A DNA stretch of 64,000 bases, from assembly GCF_965641715.1 (NCBI RefSeq), contig NZ_OZ282453.1, one strand, 5' to 3'. Shown here in pieces: positions 1 to 11,683 of the stretch (positions are counted from its first letter, which is position 1; every line of letters starts with the position of its first letter). The stretch is from Escherichia coli (GTDB lineage Bacteria > Pseudomonadota > Gammaproteobacteria > Enterobacterales > Enterobacteriaceae). Made by a program: the position numbers and the translations under genes. The notes beneath the pieces are model-generated. The model worked only from the letters and a program-made list of their open reading frames with translations, was not told where the DNA came from and ran no database searches.

Positions 1-164
1 CGTATAACACAGCAGCAGGCGGACGCTGCAGATGATTATTCTGCGGTGACATATATTCATCCCTGAAATGTATTAATGAAATAAACGATATTTTACGCGC
101 AATAAATGTTTGGCGCATTAGTTGTTTGAGCGAAAAATATCTGGAAAGCAGATCACAGTAAATA

Positions 165-680: not shown

Positions 681-998
681 TTATTCTATTTCTTGGTTGA
701 ATATATTCTGTAGTTCACGATTAAAAATTGCTATTACAGTTTCAGGTGATTCACCTCGTAATTTCCGCTCATCAATACACTCATCTCTTATATAAATCAA
801 CGCATCATTTATTAGCGGGTCAGCATCTTCTCGATCACGTTGATGAAATGTTGGATGTAGCCGGAATCGCTCCAGTCGATAGACGGAACCTGTAAATAAT
901 TCAGAGCATTTATGGACCTCAAGTCTGAAGGAAAACGGATCTTCAGGTACAGGGACCTCATAATCGTAAATAGCAACCAGCTCTTTTTGCACGATCAT
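681..998 (-). CDS. yehK: Uncharacterized 105-aa protein, YehK-like
   Basis: Track ORF of 105 aa; position next to yehI and length match my recollection of K-12 YehK. Confidence 0.55.
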   Translation of the reverse strand: MIVQKELVAIYDYEVPVPEDPFSFRLEVHKCSELFTGSVYRLERFRLHPTFHQRDREDADPLINDALIYIRDECIDERKLRGESPETVIAIFNRELQNIFNQEIE

Positions 999-1058: not shown

Positions 1059-4000
1059 TTAATGGAAAATGACGTCAGGTGCGCTTAACGCCTCACTCAA
1101 ATCAAACACATCAAGTTCGGCAAAAGTGACGGATTTATTGTCACGGTACACTCGAAGAGAACGGAAGCTCATTAGCGCTTTGCTATCAACATTGTAGTGG
1201 TTAAAACCGGGTGAAAACTTAAGGACCAGCCGGTACTCACCCAGGTCATAGACAAATGCGTCCTCATAGCCTGACTCCCAGCCTTTGTATCGCATTCCCA
1301 TAAGTTGCCCAACGGTAGCGGATTTACCTTCCCAGCGAGTCAGGCTGTTACTGGTTGACTCGTCAGGTGTGAGCAGCACCGTGCGGCGCGACAACTGGCG
1401 AAAAGGCGGCATAATTTCGTAATCGGCAAAAAGCTGTGCAAATTCACTGCGCATTTCTGCTGTCATTTCTAACGGGTGGGCAATGCCAATCAGAGCATCC
1501 GCAGGAAGGTCAATGGGCTCATCCTGCGCATTGCAGAACTCCCCCTCTGCGGCCACACGAAAGGCGTTGAGTAAACGACGCGGTTCATTTGCCGGATAAA
1601 CCCCCCATATTAATCGCTGGGTAACCAGGCGGGTAAAGGGATGATTAACAAACAGAGAATGAAAATCTGCCAGCGACCAGCGTCGGGTGGTACGTAGGGC
1701 AGCTTCAAGACGCGGGAGCAGGTTTTTGCTCACCTGAGTAGCATCTTTTTTTAGCCCTTTTAGTCGGGCCAGTGCCTCGGGCGCTTTCAGTTGATCGTCA
1801 TCGGCACGCAACCGGGGAACACTTTTCTGGCGAACGTTTTGTTGATCAAAGATAACCGGGTTGAGGTTTTCATCGAAGCGAACGGTAAACTGCCGGGGAC
1901 CAAAATCAAAAATCAACGCCTGCGGATCATCAAGACCCAGTGTTGGGACTAATCTGTCCGCTAACTCTTCCTGGCTTAGCCCGCGATTTTCTGCGACCAC
2001 CTGAAGAAATTCCGCTGCGTTTTCACGTAATGAAGAGGATTTCGCCCGTTGTGATACATGATGCAGCTGTATCAGCGCCATATCATTATTCATCAAGGTA
2101 AGTATATTCAGACCAATGACAGCACGGGCAGATTTGCCTTCTTGTGGCCAGGCGAGGATCTGTGTCGTCAGATCCCGAGCCGTGCTTTCGTCACCAAAGA
2201 GACTTAACGCCAGAAATGCCCAGTTGTCTTTTGCGGGGGCACCAGCTTGTTGCCACGCAGTGAAGAGATCCCAGGCAAAAGCGGCCAGCGTTTGTGGCTG
2301 GCAAAACGTTTTCAGTTGTTCCAGACCGCTATAAAAACGTCCGCCCTGGGTAAAGCGCAGCATTTCGCCGATAATTTCCAGAGCGTCATCGGTAACAGGC
2401 TGATTATTAGTGATAAGTCGCGGCCTGGACCACATTGCCGGATGCCAGAAATCAGGGGCTTTTGGAATGCGTGCCGGGTAAATGTCCATTGGACCCTGTT
2501 TCAGTAAATGCTCCAGGGCAGGCCATACATCTGTACGCTGCCAGCGGTTTGCCACGGTTTGCAGCAATTCACCATGTCCCTGTTCGTAAAGTAAACGCAG
2601 GGCAAGTAATGCAGCTTCGCTATTATCGCTGGATTTGGTGAAGACAAGAGGGATAAGTGCAGTAGCCGTATGTTCCGGCCAATGTAAAATCCACTGGCGA
2701 GCCAGATCACGCTGCACCGCGAAACGTCGCCAGACGCGGGCAACGGGCAGGGCCAGTTCTGTTGCGCCAAAATTTAAAATTAACGGAAATGTTTCTTTTG
2801 GACGATGTAAAAAAGCCAACATCAGACCTGGTAGCGCATCCAACCCGAGGATACTGAGAAAATAGTCCTCACCCGCGAACAGATGTTTTTTCTCATTGAT
2901 ACGCAGCCAGAAGGTCAAAGCCATCTCACGCGGCAACTGTGCCAATAAATACAGGTTCCAGACACTCTTTTCCGGACGATAACGTGAGTAGTTGTCATTT
3001 TCCCATATGTTAATTAACGCTTCTATGTGACCGCTGCGGAGCGCCTGTTCTGCTAATTGTGCTTCCGGGGAGTTCCAGCCATTCAGGATCTCTTCAACCC
3101 GCCCCTGGTAGTAATGCCACTGAACAATGAGTGAATTGCGTGCAGCATCCAGTTTTCCGGGGAGTATATAATTCAGAAACAGCCATACATCATCCCCAAA
3201 ACCCAGTTCCTGTAATACAACTCGCCCACTTTTTTGTTCCATGCGTTCCGCAAGAGATTCCGTGCTGAAATAACGGGCAGACTCAGTGGAGGCAAGCCAC
3301 TCTTGTTCGCCTGGTTGCCAGTAAACTTGCGGGGTTAATTCGAGCGGTGCCAAATCAAGACGTGGAGCTGTCATTTTTTTCTTACTACGCCACGGTGGTG
3401 AAACGAGGATTTCAGGCAGATTGCTGTTATCGGTGCCATCAATAACCGGTTTGGGCGGTGCCAATAAATAACTATTCAGTACTGCCCGGGCTTGAGTACT
3501 TAACCACTGCATCACCTCTTCTGCCAGTTGTGGCTGCGATGCCATCAGCGTTTGTAACAGCGTACGCCAGTATTCATCGCGTGCTTTTTGCTGGGCAGGC
3601 AGCTTTTTGTCTTCGATGATTGGATAACCAGGGCGGGCTGGTGGTTCTTTTAACGCCAGCAGTTCTGCCAGTGCCGCGAGCGTCGCGTGGGGGAAGTTTT
3701 TACTGTATTTAGCCACACGTTGCAGGCTGGGTTTGTTTTTATCAGCCACCAGTAGCAAGGTGTGGATGACCTGCGGATGGTTAATTTGTACCAACAGACT
3801 GCCGCAATCTTCTTTATGGGCATACATCGCGAGGCGCGGAATGGCTGCCAGTCCTTGTTCGCGCAAAAGGGCGGCGCAGGCCGCGTAGCCGAAGTGGTTT
3901 TTTTGTGACATGTAGCTGGCTTCGCGATCGCTAAATACGTCCAGGCCCCAGTATCGTTCGAGTTTTTTTACCGCCGTATTATCAGTAGCAACGACCTTTA

Positions 4001-4691
4001 ACCACTCCTTTGAATGGAGACTTGACCGGGAGCTTTCAAGACTGGCGAGTTCATTGGCTATTTCAGGCTTTTCCGGGAGGATCAGCGCAATAAAAGGACG
4101 GCGAATTTTGGGTATTCCTGGCAGTGCGGCAATGAGTTTATCGGCACAACGCTGCCAGCAACTTTCCTCTGCCAGCGACAGATGCTTACGCAAACGGAGA
4201 TCGAAATCGTTATAGGTCGCGGAGCCATAACCGTAGCCATAGTCCTCGTCCTGATACTGCAATGTCACTACCAGAGGATCACTCTCATAACACCGCGCAA
4301 TAAACTGGCGTGCAATCACCACCTCAGTCGCATATTCCAGCCCCTCTTGTTGGACGATTTCGTCGAGCAACTGTTGGCTGTCATTTTGCGCGATACAGGC
4401 TAGCGCCGCCATTGTCCGGGCCGGGATTGAGGGTTTGTGTTCGCCGATCAAGTTGATGGCCTGCGTGATGGCGGACTGCCACTCCAGTGAAAAATTTTCA
4501 TAACGCCAGACAATGTTTTTTTTCTTCTCAGCTTTTTTTAGCAATTCATCACCCAGTGTCTGGATGAGGCTTTCAGTGATAACAGGCGCTGGTTCGCCCG
4601 GCCAATTGCGATGGCTGAGTGGTGTTTTACCCTTTTTATATTTCAGTTCCAGTTGGGCGTTATCAGCCAGCCACGGTAATTCCTTGTCCAT
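1059..4691 (-). CDS. yehI: Large uncharacterized protein (1210 aa), YehI-like, DUF4132-type C-terminal region
   Basis: Track ORF 1210 aa; paralogous to the two downstream giant ORFs (shared motifs WPGEP, RKHLSLAEE, LDFGPRQFTV, YEIMPPFRQL); lacks the N-terminal WGR-like domain. Confidence 0.7.
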   Translation of the reverse strand: MDKELPWLADNAQLELKYKKGKTPLSHRNWPGEPAPVITESLIQTLGDELLKKAEKKKNIVWRYENFSLEWQSAITQAINLIGEHKPSIPARTMAALACIAQNDSQQLLDEIVQQEGLEYATEVVIARQFIARCYESDPLVVTLQYQDEDYGYGYGSATYNDFDLRLRKHLSLAEESCWQRCADKLIAALPGIPKIRRPFIALILPEKPEIANELASLESSRSSLHSKEWLKVVATDNTAVKKLERYWGLDVFSDREASYMSQKNHFGYAACAALLREQGLAAIPRLAMYAHKEDCGSLLVQINHPQVIHTLLLVADKNKPSLQRVAKYSKNFPHATLAALAELLALKEPPARPGYPIIEDKKLPAQQKARDEYWRTLLQTLMASQPQLAEEVMQWLSTQARAVLNSYLLAPPKPVIDGTDNSNLPEILVSPPWRSKKKMTAPRLDLAPLELTPQVYWQPGEQEWLASTESARYFSTESLAERMEQKSGRVVLQELGFGDDVWLFLNYILPGKLDAARNSLIVQWHYYQGRVEEILNGWNSPEAQLAEQALRSGHIEALINIWENDNYSRYRPEKSVWNLYLLAQLPREMALTFWLRINEKKHLFAGEDYFLSILGLDALPGLMLAFLHRPKETFPLILNFGATELALPVARVWRRFAVQRDLARQWILHWPEHTATALIPLVFTKSSDNSEAALLALRLLYEQGHGELLQTVANRWQRTDVWPALEHLLKQGPMDIYPARIPKAPDFWHPAMWSRPRLITNNQPVTDDALEIIGEMLRFTQGGRFYSGLEQLKTFCQPQTLAAFAWDLFTAWQQAGAPAKDNWAFLALSLFGDESTARDLTTQILAWPQEGKSARAVIGLNILTLMNNDMALIQLHHVSQRAKSSSLRENAAEFLQVVAENRGLSQEELADRLVPTLGLDDPQALIFDFGPRQFTVRFDENLNPVIFDQQNVRQKSVPRLRADDDQLKAPEALARLKGLKKDATQVSKNLLPRLEAALRTTRRWSLADFHSLFVNHPFTRLVTQRLIWGVYPANEPRRLLNAFRVAAEGEFCNAQDEPIDLPADALIGIAHPLEMTAEMRSEFAQLFADYEIMPPFRQLSRRTVLLTPDESTSNSLTRWEGKSATVGQLMGMRYKGWESGYEDAFVYDLGEYRLVLKFSPGFNHYNVDSKALMSFRSLRVYRDNKSVTFAELDVFDLSEALSAPDVIFH

Positions 4692-4700
4692 GCTCTTTCC

Positions 4701-7700
4701 TTATTCAAACAGGGCTTCAATATCGTTAATTAGCTCGCTGGCGGTGATGGCATCGAGTACGGAGAGCTGCGCTTCCTGTATTGAATTACTCCCCCAGCCA
4801 TAGCTTTCCGCTTTGCCTTCCCATAGCCACAGCTTGCTTAAGAGTTGCTCGGCACTCAGTTCGGCTGGCGACATGCCTACCGCAAAGCCTTCATCGATTT
4901 CCATGATTAACGACCAGCGGCCCAGAGGTTTGATCATCCAGCCGATCCAGCCTCCATCCTGTGGTTCGCCCTTTATCCAGCCTTTATTCGCCAGCCCCAT
5001 TACCCGACCGCTCGGGCATTTTCTGCCTGCCCAGCGGGTCAGTTCGCTGGCATTGCGCTCGGTTTCTGTCAGGGCGTAACTGTTACGGTCGAGCTGGCGG
5101 AACGGCGGTAGCAGTTCGTAGTCGGCAAAAAGCTGCCCAAATGCGGCGGCATCCGTCGGTGATATTTCCAGAACGTGAGGAATACCAACAGAGATATCGC
5201 CTTCCGGCAGGGTGAAAAGATCATCGTCAGCGGTGCTGTAGCTGTTATCTTCCGCTACGCGGAAGCACGTCAGTAGCTGGTTTTCGGTGCTATAAACGCC
5301 CCAAATCAGACGGCGGGTTAAGTGGTGTACCAGTGGATGTTCAACCAGGAAGAGCTGAAAGTTTTCTGGCGACCAGCGGCGACGCAGGCACATGGCGGAT
5401 TCCAACCTTGCTACCTGCTGGGCGGCGACGGTACGCGCATCTTTTTTCAGCAGTTTGTAGCGGTTAACAGCATCGTTCGCCTGTGATTCATCATCGCTTT
5501 TGTTTGGTTTGGGCAGGTCTTTCAGACGGCTGCCGGAAGCGTCACGCACAAACGGTTTTAAGGTTTCATCAAAGCTGACGGTGAACTGGCGTGGGCCGAA
5601 ATCCAGCAGCAACGAACCGTTATCATCCAGACTGAGATCCGGTGCTAACCGATCTTCAAGCTCCGCCACTGTCAGTTCGCGACTTTCAGCAATGTCGGCA
5701 ATTTTCTCTTTCGCCCGCTCCTGTAAAGCTTTGAATTTCAGTTTCTGAGCAATGCCGTTAAGCTGCATCAGAGCGATATCACTACCGATAGCGGCGAGAA
5801 TATCCAACCCAACGGTGGCGCGTTTATGCTGAGATTCGCCAGGCCAGGCGCGTATTAATGGCGTCAGTTTGCGAGCGGTGTCGTCGTTACCGAGAACACA
5901 TAACGCAGTGAACGCCCAGCTTTCTTTCGATGGTGCACCCGTAGTCAGCCAGGCGGTAAACAGATCCCAGGCAAATTCAGCCAGTGAGTCGGCGGTACAG
6001 GCATCTTTCACCTGCAATAATCCCGGATACAGCGCCTCTTCCTGAGGGAAGCGGAGCATTTCACCGAGGTGGAGGAGGGCGTTATCTGGCAGTACCTTGC
6101 TGCTATTTTTGAGTTTTGGGCGAGTCCATAATGGAGGTTGATAAAACAACGGTAAAGGGGGGATTTTCGCCGGGTATTTACCCACAGGACTGTTGTCGTT
6201 ATTTTTATTTTGAGTTTCCCAGGGCGGCGAGACTAGTACCATTGGTAGAATTTCTGAGTTTGCAAAATCTTCATTGCGACTATTCAGCAATTGCTGACAT
6301 TGTTGCAATAAATTTGCCGCTTGCGACGATAATCCGATGACTAATTTTTCGACCAATAAAGGATTTGCATTAAGTAATGAAACCAGCAACGTATGTTTGC
6401 GTTTATCATCTTTTTTTACCAATTCTTCGGCTAATGCCGCTATCGTGGCAGAAGGAAAATTTTCGGCACTTTTTATTAGTCGTTCATAACAGCGTTTATT
6501 AGTATCGGCGGCTTCGATGAGTGCCGTAATGGCCAACGGATGATTAATACATTTCAGTACGTCACCGCAATTATCTTCTTCAGCATAGGAAGCCAGGCGA
6601 GCCAGTGCCGCTATACCTTGTTCCCGTAATACCGTAGCTGACCAACTGGCACCATAGGTGTTAAATACATCAATGTATTGATAGTTCTCCAGTATTTCGA
6701 GCGTGAATGGATCTGTCGCTACCAGTTTCAACATTTCAAGTTGTGGAACATCTGCGACCTGGTGTAAACGATGTACGATCTCATGGGCCACTTCGGGTAT
6801 TTCTGGCATTAAAATGGCAATTAACGGTTGGCGATAGAGTGATATATCTGGTAACGCAACGAGTAATTTTGCAATGCAATTTTGCCATACTTCTTCTTCT
6901 GCTAGTGATAAATGTTTACGCAGACGTAAACTAAATTTGTCGTTATTCCTTCTATAACTGTCCTTGCTGCTATCTGCATAATTAATAAAGAAAGTCAAAT
7001 GTTCATCTTTATAGTCAAAATCGAAATCAATTTGCCACCAGAAGATGACAGTTTCAGTTGCGTATTCGATACCGAAGGTGCTTACAATTTCATCCAGCAA
7101 CTCGGATGAGGTTTCATCATTCCAGCCCTGACAAAAACATATTTCCAGAAAAGTAAGTACCGCCATAGTACGCGCGGGTATCTCAGTCTTTTGGGCCTTA
7201 ATTAAGCTGATTGCCTGGCTAATCGCATCAGCCCATTCATCAGAGCATGAGCTGTAATCGAAAGTCAGATTTTTATAATAATGATAAGTACGATTTGCCA
7301 ATCGGGAAATTAAATTTTGTTTTTCGGGTTTGGTTGGTTTTTTAACTGGCTCTCCCGGCCAAAGGCGGTGGCTGAGGGCATGGCGGGCAATATTCGGGGG
7401 AAGAATAATGGGATCGTTGTCTGCCAGCCAGGGTAAACCATTAGTTGCTGCCTGGCGATTTATTGAGGCTTTTTCCTCTGTGACCAGGACTTTCTTTGCT
7501 GAGGCATCATGTGAGTGAGCGTTAGCGTCTACTTGCTCCACATACCCCTTCTTCACCTTCTCCGCAATCAGCTTCAGTTCCACTTTTTCCGCCGCCGCAG
7601 CATCTGCAAAGCTTTTTACCTGACTTTGCCCGTTAGTGCCGACTTTACCCCAGGTTATATGCAGCTCGTTTCCCTGCTGCTCCACCGCCCAGAATTTATG

Positions 7701-7733
7701 TGATTTTTCGTCCTGATAAATATAGGTTTTCAT
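4701..7733 (-). CDS. Large paralog (1010 aa) with N-terminal WGR-like domain and DUF4132-like C-terminal region
   Basis: Track ORF; N-terminus MKTYIYQDEKSHKFWAVEQQGNELHITWGKVGTNGQ is WGR-like; C-terminal half aligns by eye with its neighbours. Confidence 0.65.
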   Translation of the reverse strand: MKTYIYQDEKSHKFWAVEQQGNELHITWGKVGTNGQSQVKSFADAAAAEKVELKLIAEKVKKGYVEQVDANAHSHDASAKKVLVTEEKASINRQAATNGLPWLADNDPIILPPNIARHALSHRLWPGEPVKKPTKPEKQNLISRLANRTYHYYKNLTFDYSSCSDEWADAISQAISLIKAQKTEIPARTMAVLTFLEICFCQGWNDETSSELLDEIVSTFGIEYATETVIFWWQIDFDFDYKDEHLTFFINYADSSKDSYRRNNDKFSLRLRKHLSLAEEEVWQNCIAKLLVALPDISLYRQPLIAILMPEIPEVAHEIVHRLHQVADVPQLEMLKLVATDPFTLEILENYQYIDVFNTYGASWSATVLREQGIAALARLASYAEEDNCGDVLKCINHPLAITALIEAADTNKRCYERLIKSAENFPSATIAALAEELVKKDDKRKHTLLVSLLNANPLLVEKLVIGLSSQAANLLQQCQQLLNSRNEDFANSEILPMVLVSPPWETQNKNNDNSPVGKYPAKIPPLPLFYQPPLWTRPKLKNSSKVLPDNALLHLGEMLRFPQEEALYPGLLQVKDACTADSLAEFAWDLFTAWLTTGAPSKESWAFTALCVLGNDDTARKLTPLIRAWPGESQHKRATVGLDILAAIGSDIALMQLNGIAQKLKFKALQERAKEKIADIAESRELTVAELEDRLAPDLSLDDNGSLLLDFGPRQFTVSFDETLKPFVRDASGSRLKDLPKPNKSDDESQANDAVNRYKLLKKDARTVAAQQVARLESAMCLRRRWSPENFQLFLVEHPLVHHLTRRLIWGVYSTENQLLTCFRVAEDNSYSTADDDLFTLPEGDISVGIPHVLEISPTDAAAFGQLFADYELLPPFRQLDRNSYALTETERNASELTRWAGRKCPSGRVMGLANKGWIKGEPQDGGWIGWMIKPLGRWSLIMEIDEGFAVGMSPAELSAEQLLSKLWLWEGKAESYGWGSNSIQEAQLSVLDAITASELINDIEALFE

Positions 7734-7745
7734 TGTTAAATCCTT

Positions 7746-10700
7746 TTAATCAAACAGTGATTCAATGTCGTTAATCAGCTCGCTGGCGGTGATGTCGTCG
7801 AGCATGGAGAAAGTGGGTGAGGATTGTTTACCATAGCGATCATAAGGGGCGGTGATTTTTACGCTTTCGACAGGCAGCAGGTCGCTATACCCCGTTTCGC
7901 CATAAATTAATGAAAAAGGTTCCGTTTCAAGTTCGAGAGCACCATAAGGGGTAGATTTGCGCATCGCATAAACGCTGCCGCTTTCTTCCAGACGTTGCCA
8001 GCCTCGGCGTTCCAGCCCGACAATGCGTCCGGCCTGGCAGAGACGTCCGTTCCAGCGTGACAATTCATGGACATTACGTTCGTTATCAGCAAGGTGGTAA
8101 CTACCACGTTCGAGCTGTTGGAAAGGGGGAAGCAGTTCGTAATCAACGTAAATTTGCCTGAATGCAGCGGCGGATTCAGGGGGGATTTCCAGCACATGCG
8201 GTATACCGATGTTTCCTGCTGGCAGCGTGAATAACTCATCCTGCGCATCGCTGTAAGTGCTGTCTTCTGCCACGCGAAAACAGGTGATAAGAGCGTTTTC
8301 ATCGTTATAAACCCCCCATAACAGCCGTCGGGTTAAGTGACGTACCAGCGGATGCTCCACCAGAAACAGGCGGAACTGCTCTGCCGTCCAGCGTCTGCGC
8401 TGGCACATAGCCTGTTCCAGACGGGTAATATGCTGGCTGGCGATAGCACGAACATCTTTTTTCAACTGTTTGAAGAGATTAACTGCGTCAGTTGCCAGTG
8501 TTTTATCATCGCTCTGGTTTGGCTTAGGTAAATCTTTCAGGACTTTGCCGTTTGCATCGCACACTACAGGTTTTAAGGTTTCGTCAAAACCAACGGTGAA
8601 TTTGCGGGGGCCGAAATCCAGTATCAGCGAGCCACTGCTATCAAGCCCTAAATCTGGAGCCAGGCGGTCTTCCATTTCAGCCATAGTCAGCCCACGGTTT
8701 TCAGCAACTATGTTGATTTTCTCGCGGGCATGTTCCTGTAATGCTTTGAATTTAATTTTTCGCGCGATGCCATTAAGCAGCATTAGCGCAACATCGCTGC
8801 CAATATCAGCTAATACATCCAGCCCGGACACCGCCCGTTTATGCTGGGATTCCCCAGGCCAGGCGCGGATAAGCGGGGTTAATTTACGCGCGGTGTCGTC
8901 ATTGCCTAAAATCCCAAGCGAAGTAAATGCCCAGTTTTCTTTTGCGGGTGCGCCAGCTTCTGTCCAGGCGGTATACAGATCCCAGCCAAATTCAGCCAGT
9001 GATTCGCGGGTGAAGATTTCTCTAATGATATCCAGCCCAGCGTAGGCGGTAATGTCGCGAGGAAAGCTCAGCATAGTGCCGAGGTGGCGCATAGCGTCAT
9101 CTGACAGAGGCAGGTTGTTACTTTTAAGCCGTGGTCTGCGCCATAAGGTGAACTGATAAAAGCCGGGCAGTGGGGCGATTTTAGCGGGATATTCTTCCAG
9201 CGGCTCGCTATCAAATAATGTTGCCAGCGCAGCTAAAACATCAGGTTGGTTATACCCCTGGGCGATTTCTTCAATCGTTTCTCGCTGGTTTAAATTCACC
9301 AGCAGACGAAGCGCCTGGCGGGCACAATCACGATCTTTTCCTTTTTTGCCCAAGGCCACAGGAAGTAGCCCGGCGGCAGCATGGCGTGGGAAGTTAGCCA
9401 GCCATTTTCGAGCATCTTCAGCAGACATTTTTTTCTGTAATCGCTGCGCCATCGGTAATGCTAATTCGCTGACGCCCAGGAAGAGGGTGAATATCCATAA
9501 CTGTTGTGGCTTACGTTGCAGACATTTCATAAACGCAGGAATGGCCGCATCACCAAAAATCGCCAGAATTTCTCTCTCGCCGGAGAATTGCTCTTCATTA
9601 ATTATTTGATTGAGAAAAGAAATAGCATGCTGAGTGGGTAGGAAGCAGAGCGCGTACAACTGCCAGTGTCTGCTTCCTTTGTTATGGTATTGCGCAAACT
9701 CGGCTTTCAGCGCGGGGAAATCGAAACGTAACAGGGCATCAACTGCGCTTTGTGGCATTATTTTTTTTTCGTATTGTTCTTCTCCGGTTCTGCGCCATTC
9801 CTTAAACCCCAGTCGCCAAAGGATTTGCTGTTCTGGCGTTAAAGGGATGAAAGACGTTTCCCAGCGTTCTTTTTTTATCGGTGGCAGGTCGGTAAATAAG
9901 GTTTGCTGTGATGCCTGATATTGCGCGATTTCACTGAATCTGGATATGTCAGTATGACTGATTAACTCTGTAATTCCTGGTGTGATATCCGTGACGGCAG
10001 GAATGGGAAGTACCGGTAAATCAAATACGGGTATGACATTCTTTTTCTTATTTATTACCCACGGTGGAGCGACAAGCAGCTCCGGCAACATATCCACAGT
10101 GGCATATTCACATTCTTCAGCTACTGGCAGCGGACGACATTCAGATAAGATGCCTGCCGCCTTAGCATTAACCCAGGGAATGACCTCGCATACTAACTCT
10201 GGCGTGGCGGTAATCAGTTTGACAAGCGCTTTACGCCACTCATTATTTTCATGTATTGCCAGCAAAGTAGCATAAGCGGCAATAGCCGCAGCGGGATGTT
10301 TTTGGCAGGCTTTGCTTAAGTATTCCAGGTGCTTTTTCTTGCCATTTACACCGAGGATCAGAATTTGAATCGCATCCGGGTGATTCGTTTTCCATAGCCA
10401 TTTGACAAGATCTTCAGTCTCGCTGATACGCTCGAAGAGATAAGTGGGATTGTCAGAATGCTCTTCCGTAAACTCAAGAAGTATCCGGCTTACACCGCGC
10501 ACCCCATTATTTGCCAGCAACATTGCCAGATAAGCGCGAAAATCATGATACAACGGTGGGAAGTCGTATTTTTCTGCTGTAGTCAGAGCGGCGTCATCGG
10601 TTACCACCAGTCTTAACCAGGTCATCGCCGGAACGTTTTGATCTGCATAACGTAGCGCCATAGCATTGGCAATATCCGGGCGTTCAGGGAGCAGTAACGC

Positions 10701-11543
10701 CGCAAAAGGTTGTCGTGCTGGGGATAGCGAGGGAATAGCAGCGAGTACTTTATCTACACAGCGTTGCCACTCATCTTCTGAAGCGAGTGAAAGATGATGA
10801 CATAGACGTTGATGCCAACTCGGTAGCGATTCTGCTTCGTGATTAGGTGGAATGATGGTGGTTACTGCGCCTTTTACTGGTTTATATTTGAGTTGAAGAG
10901 CGAGAAGGGCGATTTCAACGGCACTTTCCAGACCACAGCGAATGACTAAGTCATCGACCAGTTCATCTTGAGAGTAAGAGTTCCAAAAGCCCCAGAGCAA
11001 TGCTGCATCAGATTGCGCACTCCCTGTCGGTTGATTACCCTTAACTCGCATTTGTAACTCAGCAAAAGCCTGCTGCCAGTTTTCTGGATAAGAGCGGTAA
11101 TTGTTGTCGGGATCATATGCCCTGGTGTTATTCGCGATGCGCTTCCATATTTGGCCATCTTTGTACAGATAATTGATCTCTCTGGGGCGAGAGCGATGAG
11201 GAAAAGCAAATCGATTAATATCGTCAGTGACCGGAATGACTGCATCATCAGCCAGCCAGGGGCGTTGGTTTTTACTCTCAGGGGAAGTTTCAACTTCAGG
11301 AGTGGCTTTGGTAATGGGGGGGATATGCACGTTTGCTGAAGCATTTTCCACATAGCCTTTTTTCGTTTTCTCCGCGATAAGCTTCAGTTTCGCTTTTTCC
11401 GCTGCTGCAACATCAGCAAAATTTTTTACCTGGCTTTGCCCTTGGGTACCAACTTTTCCCCAGCTGATATGCAACTCGTTTCCCTGCTGCTCCACCGCCC
11501 AGAATTTATGTGATTTTTCGTCCTGATAGATAAAGTGTCTCAT
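7746..11543 (-). CDS. molR: MolR-like large protein (1265 aa), intact; WGR-like N-terminus plus DUF4132-like region
   Basis: Track ORF 1265 aa next to metG; N-terminus MRHFIYQDEKSHKFWAVEQQGNELHISWGKVG; in K-12 this gene is, as I recall, a pseudogene. Confidence 0.6.
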   Translation of the reverse strand: MRHFIYQDEKSHKFWAVEQQGNELHISWGKVGTQGQSQVKNFADVAAAEKAKLKLIAEKTKKGYVENASANVHIPPITKATPEVETSPESKNQRPWLADDAVIPVTDDINRFAFPHRSRPREINYLYKDGQIWKRIANNTRAYDPDNNYRSYPENWQQAFAELQMRVKGNQPTGSAQSDAALLWGFWNSYSQDELVDDLVIRCGLESAVEIALLALQLKYKPVKGAVTTIIPPNHEAESLPSWHQRLCHHLSLASEDEWQRCVDKVLAAIPSLSPARQPFAALLLPERPDIANAMALRYADQNVPAMTWLRLVVTDDAALTTAEKYDFPPLYHDFRAYLAMLLANNGVRGVSRILLEFTEEHSDNPTYLFERISETEDLVKWLWKTNHPDAIQILILGVNGKKKHLEYLSKACQKHPAAAIAAYATLLAIHENNEWRKALVKLITATPELVCEVIPWVNAKAAGILSECRPLPVAEECEYATVDMLPELLVAPPWVINKKKNVIPVFDLPVLPIPAVTDITPGITELISHTDISRFSEIAQYQASQQTLFTDLPPIKKERWETSFIPLTPEQQILWRLGFKEWRRTGEEQYEKKIMPQSAVDALLRFDFPALKAEFAQYHNKGSRHWQLYALCFLPTQHAISFLNQIINEEQFSGEREILAIFGDAAIPAFMKCLQRKPQQLWIFTLFLGVSELALPMAQRLQKKMSAEDARKWLANFPRHAAAGLLPVALGKKGKDRDCARQALRLLVNLNQRETIEEIAQGYNQPDVLAALATLFDSEPLEEYPAKIAPLPGFYQFTLWRRPRLKSNNLPLSDDAMRHLGTMLSFPRDITAYAGLDIIREIFTRESLAEFGWDLYTAWTEAGAPAKENWAFTSLGILGNDDTARKLTPLIRAWPGESQHKRAVSGLDVLADIGSDVALMLLNGIARKIKFKALQEHAREKINIVAENRGLTMAEMEDRLAPDLGLDSSGSLILDFGPRKFTVGFDETLKPVVCDANGKVLKDLPKPNQSDDKTLATDAVNLFKQLKKDVRAIASQHITRLEQAMCQRRRWTAEQFRLFLVEHPLVRHLTRRLLWGVYNDENALITCFRVAEDSTYSDAQDELFTLPAGNIGIPHVLEIPPESAAAFRQIYVDYELLPPFQQLERGSYHLADNERNVHELSRWNGRLCQAGRIVGLERRGWQRLEESGSVYAMRKSTPYGALELETEPFSLIYGETGYSDLLPVESVKITAPYDRYGKQSSPTFSMLDDITASELINDIESLFD

Positions 11544-11683
11544 TCTGCATCCCTGTAATTTTATCCAGTTGAATGCAGATGCTACCAGTATTTATGCGGG
11601 TTAGAGAGAGACAAAATCGTAAGAAAACAACTTTAGGAATTTATAAAGAAAAGGCGCTGTCGATGCAGCGCCTTGAAGGGGGA

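Follow-up and report, generated by a model that had tools for sequence, protein, structure and literature searches.

The window analyzed here, a 64,000-nt stretch of Escherichia coli DNA, contains three consecutive minus-strand genes encoding very large proteins: gene 1 (7746–11543; 1265 aa), gene 2 (4701–7733; 1010 aa), and gene 3 (1059–4691; 1210 aa), which RefSeq labels yehI in matching genomes. The ORF list gives exactly these coordinates, and in the list and translations each frame starts with ATG and is uninterrupted by stops. The intergenic spacers are 12 and 9 nt, and each gene has a separate ribosome-binding site, so the three form a tight operon. An intrinsic terminator of metG (11651–11674, minus strand), consisting of a nine-pair GC-rich stem and a T run, parts metG from the operon. 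Between the two, a site resembling a LexA (SOS) box, CTGGATAAAATTACAG (11553–11568, minus strand), is read 10–25 nt 5' of the gene 1 ATG. On this strand, a simple scan for sigma-70 promoters detected no consensus match for gene 1. Downstream of yehI lie yehK (681–998, minus strand; 105 aa), which has no recognizable domain and was detected by tblastn only in the Escherichia loci L007–L009, and the start of yehL (1–52, minus strand), which encodes a MoxR AAA+ ATPase. The first 17 codons of yehL, MSPQNNHLQRPPAAVL, match YehL of E. coli ABW_A19, which of the complete genomes in the collection is the best match to this region; the remainder of yehLMPQ is outside the window.

All three proteins contain DUF4132 (PF13569; E 3e-47 to 2e-52, 161–178 bits vs. 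a Pfam gathering cut-off of 27), which in gene 1 spans residues 999–1182 (7998–8549, minus strand; E 3e-50). Genes 1 and 2 additionally qualify as WGR proteins, with a Pfam WGR domain (PF05406) at residues 6–69 of gene 1 (11337–11528, minus strand; E 6e-18) and residues 7–69 of gene 2 (7527–7715, minus strand; E 2e-17), followed in both by a helical solenoid. The motif quoted in the original prediction is present (FIYQDEKSHKFWAVEQQGNELHISWGKVG for gene 1, YIYQDEKSHKFWAVEQQGNELHITWGKVG for gene 2), and yehI was correctly described there as lacking the domain; the start of YehI aligns with gene 1 residue 95, directly past the WGR domain and linker. The suggestion of an ancient tandem duplication was likewise borne out. 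By BLASTP, the three proteins are related to one another (gene 1 vs. gene 2, E = 0; gene 1 vs. yehI, E 5e-176 with 32% identity over the full length; gene 2 vs. yehI, E 3e-117). Moreover, the C-terminal domain of each copy has higher identity to the Klebsiella copy in the equivalent position (78, 65–67, and 62%) than to its neighbors (37–57%), which indicates that the three genes are paralogs of an old tandem duplication.

The proteins are ordered as a WGR domain (genes 1 and 2), a HEAT-like solenoid, and a conserved ~500-aa C-terminal module containing DUF4132. The gene 2 product was modeled with AlphaFold both at full length (pLDDT 91, pTM 0.79) and as its isolated C-terminal module (pLDDT 94; residues 513–1010; 4704–6197, minus strand), the latter comprising a helical part and an alpha/beta domain with DUF4132. 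Structural matches to the helical parts are exclusively HEAT/ARM-type repeat proteins, and the WGR domain superposes on those of PARP3 and PARP1. Relative to PARP1/2/3, however, no PARP catalytic domain is present in the window proteins, genes 1 and 2 have WGK in place of WGR, and a solenoid and DUF4132 come after it instead of a helical or ART domain. The family is large (8845 clusters at 50% identity), and in almost all of the 150 representatives listed the best match falls in the C-terminal module, with 35–60% identity across phyla and 25 invariant residues, the acidic E1000, D747, and D694 of gene 2 among them; the family-wide majority-residue frequency is 0.55–0.76 in this module vs. 0.31–0.41 in the solenoid and middle segment. 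An enzyme fold was not found in any of the three proteins. Pfam scans detected no HTH or other regulator domain in them, and neither they nor the longer family members examined have an effector domain such as a nuclease, protease, or TIR; a fused effector in the longest members was accordingly rejected, a single histidine-kinase fusion probably being a gene-calling merge. Sequence searches of the PDB with gene 2, yehI, YehM, YehQ, and a C-terminal-domain profile matched only the 2ra8 WGR domain, and the PADLOC and NCBIfam libraries returned nothing beyond WGR.

Genes 1 and 2 each have a distinctive distribution among E. coli. Of 5426 complete genomes, 1643 contain the body of gene 1, mostly at 88–92% identity; K-12 lacks the gene. 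Its middle segment (residues ~503–780; 9204–10037, minus strand) is hypervariable among strains, window positions 10000–9501 being 99.6% identical to ABW_A19 but only ~70% identical to PS10-3 and EDL933. An alignment gap corresponds to this segment in gene 2, which lacks ~275 aa there. In the composition profile, gene 2 has a low-GC N-terminal solenoid segment (6200–7500, minus strand; GC ~42%) that marks the 1010-aa allele type and occurs in only 410 of the 5426 genomes, with at least 99% identity in 406 of them. Gene 2 of the window is a shortened mosaic allele.

The name molR stems from older genetics. The original prediction took the metG-adjacent copy for an intact molR, described the K-12 gene at this position as a pseudogene, and proposed that this strain may retain the ancestral intact form. 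The K-12 gene is indeed annotated as a pseudogene ("frameshifted; internal stop"). Comparison with K-12 molR shows the rest of the assignment to be incorrect: gene 1 matches it only in the upstream region and first ~200 nt, ~2.1 kb of molR has no DNA match anywhere in the window, and the final 1.5 kb aligns to gene 2 at 94.7%. In Escherichia whittamii, which has three genes, the body of K-12 molR maps to the second, implying that K-12 has a derived two-gene layout without gene 1. On the strength of these alignments, K-12 molR is a chimera whose promoter and first ~200 nt are gene 1-like and whose body is orthologous to gene 2. The common intact form of E. coli MolR (P0088; 1262 aa) is just 44% identical to gene 1; the metG-adjacent gene of the window is not the intact form of K-12 molR, which corrects an annotation trap. 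The window genes share with K-12 molR and intact MolR the locus, promoter, SOS box, and family, and the C-terminal half of gene 2 is ~94% identical; they differ in that gene 1 has no K-12 counterpart and that gene 2, compared to intact MolR, is without the middle segment and has a different, low-GC N-terminal half. E. coli genomes commonly encode an intact MolR-type protein; the exception is K-12, not the window strain. What this strain retains is the older three-gene layout, rather than an ancestral molR beside metG, and its gene 2 is itself shortened.

Inactivation of the locus recurs in E. coli. K-12 has a stop in yehQ in addition to the molR pseudogene; in EDL933, gene 1 and yehM each contain a stop and gene 2 is frameshifted. 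IS5-, IS1-, and IS4-family elements are annotated beside DUF4132/WGR genes at the locus in some strains, and a transposon insertion is the marker of one ST131 sublineage (PMC9334617). Because the locus is so often inactivated, the system is dispensable in E. coli. These independent losses in several lineages, with IS-family transposases at the locus, would be expected if the three genes were functionless relics of duplication drifting to loss, as in K-12 and O157:H7. However, the window ORFs run uninterrupted for 1010–1265 codons, and dN/dS against other strains is 0.18–0.29 for the three genes, which places them under purifying selection rather than decay. Together with the cross-phylum conservation of the C-terminal module and its invariant residues, and the conserved yehLMPQ gene order (see below), this makes drift to loss very improbable; ORF integrity and the selection signal have already largely refuted it.

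The alleles that are retained are deeply diverged and mosaic, with 70–100% identity in neighboring blocks, and the presence of particular gene 1 and gene 2 allele types depends on the strain. Positive selection in the hypervariable segments was considered and rejected, given saturated dS and a dN/dS of ~0.15 (for the gene 1 middle segment, dS 1.3–1.5 and dN/dS 0.15–0.17); these values indicate old alleles moved by recombination.

The DUF4132 genes have a consistent set of neighbors. We compared 74 loci from Enterobacterales, Burkholderiales, Xanthomonadales, a Deltaproteobacteria-labeled MAG, Trichlorobacter, and mycobacteria. In 59 of these, homologs of yehL (MoxR AAA+), yehM (DUF5682), yehP (VWA), and yehQ (double SWIM zinc finger) adjoin the DUF4132 gene(s) on the same strand, and all four are present in 49. 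Among the 15 unlinked loci, ~7 are cut by a contig edge or stop too near the array to judge, and ~7 have full flanks without a nearby yehLMPQ, mostly in Massilia genomes that also bear a linked array. A single yehLMPQ set accompanies from one to at least seven tandem DUF4132 genes, and an independent metagenomic contig has the same gene order. In E. coli ABW_A19, PS10-3, and K-12, yehLMPQ follows yehI and yehK; this is the synteny of a YehL-type MoxR-VWA system, of which just 52 nt of yehL are visible within the window. The machine parts YehL (AAA_5, E 2e-34), YehP (VWA_CoxE, E 2e-72, with the MIDAS motif DQSGS), and YehQ (two CxCx(n)CxH SWIM motifs) appear intact in ABW_A19. Synteny and the conserved C-terminal module suggest that the giant DUF4132 genes and yehLMPQ are coupled and form one conserved system across several phyla. 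A zorO/OrzO type I toxin-antitoxin module is also found inside the locus, and AbiEi/AbiEii genes adjoin one locus. The literature searched yielded no functional study of DUF4132, DUF5682, yehI, or yehL/M/P/Q, and no physical interaction, expression, or phenotype data for these proteins.

The closest comparison is to the MoxR AAA+/VWA chaperone pairs. The YehL subfamily is one of seven MoxR subfamilies (PMC3893208); yehL is its founding member, and the partner VWA protein YehP has a MIDAS, as in RavA-ViaA, CoxD-CoxE, and NorQ-NorD. The principle by which a VWA protein captures a partner that the AAA+ ring then remodels is likely shared. The YehL pair differs in being accompanied by a DUF5682 protein, a SWIM protein, and at least one giant WGR/DUF4132 protein, and YehL loci do not have a consistently nearby metalloenzyme gene. 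A precedent exists in the maturation of metalloenzymes by MoxR-VWA pairs (methanol dehydrogenase and nitric oxide reductase are examples) and in the action of RavA-ViaA on Nuo (PMC3893208). With this precedent, the old name "molybdate metabolism regulator," and a CoxD/CoxE-type pair whose VWA member matches VWA_CoxE so strongly, a system for the maturation and regulation of a metal cofactor or molybdoenzyme could be envisaged. We regard it as quite unlikely, since molR is a pseudogene in K-12, molybdenum families are absent from the 25 most frequent of the 102 Pfam families found around 37 loci, and WGR, SWIM, and SOS control are ill-suited to cofactor insertion; moreover, moeA and moeB expression was unchanged in a Deinococcus study (PMC8533742), and several hypervariable paralogs would be unexpected for a single client enzyme.

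A second comparison is to the MoxR-vWA ternary conflict systems with VMAP and iSTAND proteins (Kaur et al. 2020, PMC7159879), which likewise have a MoxR and vWA core, large fast-diversifying partners, and multiple paralogs per genome. YehLMPQ, however, includes neither a VMAP nor an iSTAND protein and has no effector fused to the vWA: YehP contains only VWA, YehM only DUF5682, and YehQ only SWIM, and the match of YehL to the bpMoxR model is weak (E 0.001, below the cut-off). WGR, SWIM, DUF4132, and YehL go unmentioned in that study (PMC7159879). We nonetheless considered whether the locus might be a new anti-phage or anti-mobile-element immunity system in which the paralogs are a repertoire of invader sensors and YehLMPQ an NTP-driven switch. 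The arrays of one to at least seven paralogs with variable sensor-like regions, the diverged mosaic alleles, the patchy allele types, and the frequent pseudogenes would fit such a role, as would the zorO/OrzO module, the AbiEi/AbiEii genes, and the MoxR-VWA core of the proposed conflict systems. Against it, PADLOC-DB v2 gave only marginal WGR_XIII matches for gene 1 (E 0.014) and gene 2 (E 0.03) and nothing for yehI, YehK, YehL, YehM, YehP, or YehQ, and effector domains are absent from the proteins and the longer family members checked. Defense models matched only a handful of the 114 ORFs flanking 37 loci, the remainder being housekeeping genes, and Pfam matches in these flanks are mostly to housekeeping families; a defense-island location is thus not supported. 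The locus also occupies a fixed core-genome position, and its variable segments (dN/dS 0.15–0.3) bear no sign of positive selection. No homologs were found in 50,697 phage records, and plasmid homologs are rare, the few matches being mostly megaplasmids or mislabeled chromosomes, so a phage or plasmid origin was rejected. On balance, an immune system appears unlikely.

The upstream site suggests a link to DNA damage. CTGGATAAAATTACAG has the CTG-N10-CAG pattern in the promoter region that defines the LexA regulon and is a predicted LexA site, consistent with a review that lists molR as LexA-regulated and as having a known SOS box (PMC6590174). The box occupies an identical position in K-12, ABW_A19, EDL933, and Escherichia sp. 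E1V33, with variants in PS10-3 and K. oxytoca. None was found at the gene 1-equivalent position outside Escherichia and Klebsiella among the other genera checked, where only two CTG-N10-CAG strings occur, both ~200 nt upstream. A universal LexA box was therefore rejected, and damage control is not universal to the system. In Deinococcus radiodurans, DRA0166 (DUF4132) and DR2173 (WGR) are mitomycin C-induced in an IrrE/DdrO-dependent manner (PMC8533742).

Based on these observations, we tentatively propose, as a possibility that falls somewhat short of probable, that the three paralogs are non-enzymatic scaffolds serving as alternative adaptor or sensor subunits of a MoxR-VWA remodeling machine, YehLMPQ, that acts after DNA damage. 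The DUF4132 paralogs would be the variable, multi-copy part of this machine, and the products of the downstream yehL, yehM, yehP, and yehQ its constant part. The constant C-terminal module may dock each paralog on YehLMPQ, while the variable solenoid and nucleic acid-binding WGR head would recognize a given DNA structure or a nucleoprotein. ATP-driven remodeling or release of the bound complex by the VWA-MoxR pair would come next, following the capture-and-remodel model of such pairs (PMC7159879, PMC3893208). As the operon lies behind a LexA box in Escherichia and Klebsiella, action in these genera would come after DNA damage. We infer docking, target recognition, remodeling, and the damage role from the architecture, synteny, and SOS box described above.

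A broader and more speculative version, which we consider doubtful, is that YehLMPQ and the WGR-HEAT-DUF4132 array constitute an unrecognized, widespread bacterial sensor of DNA damage or DNA ends, in which interchangeable giant subunits would read different lesions or foreign nucleoprotein structures and the MoxR-VWA motor would remodel them. Such a system would be a functional analogue of eukaryotic break sensing by WGR (PARP), vWA (Ku), and HEAT-scaffold (DNA-PKcs/ATR-like) proteins, and its recruitment to the LexA regulon in Escherichia would have been independent of that of the DUF4132 and WGR parts to the Deinococcus DdrO/IrrE regulon.

These results bear on a gene, molR, that has been SOS-listed for decades and is still without a function, and on yehL, which defines a MoxR subfamily without a known client and whose product is one of just two E. 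coli ATPases of the MoxR type. Three findings make the problem experimentally tractable: the giant DUF4132 proteins and yehLMPQ appear to form one conserved system, with thousands of protein clusters across several phyla; its variable subunits are multi-copy; and K-12, the standard laboratory strain, has a broken and rearranged version. Knockouts and damage or phage assays are best placed in strains with all three genes intact, like the one described here.

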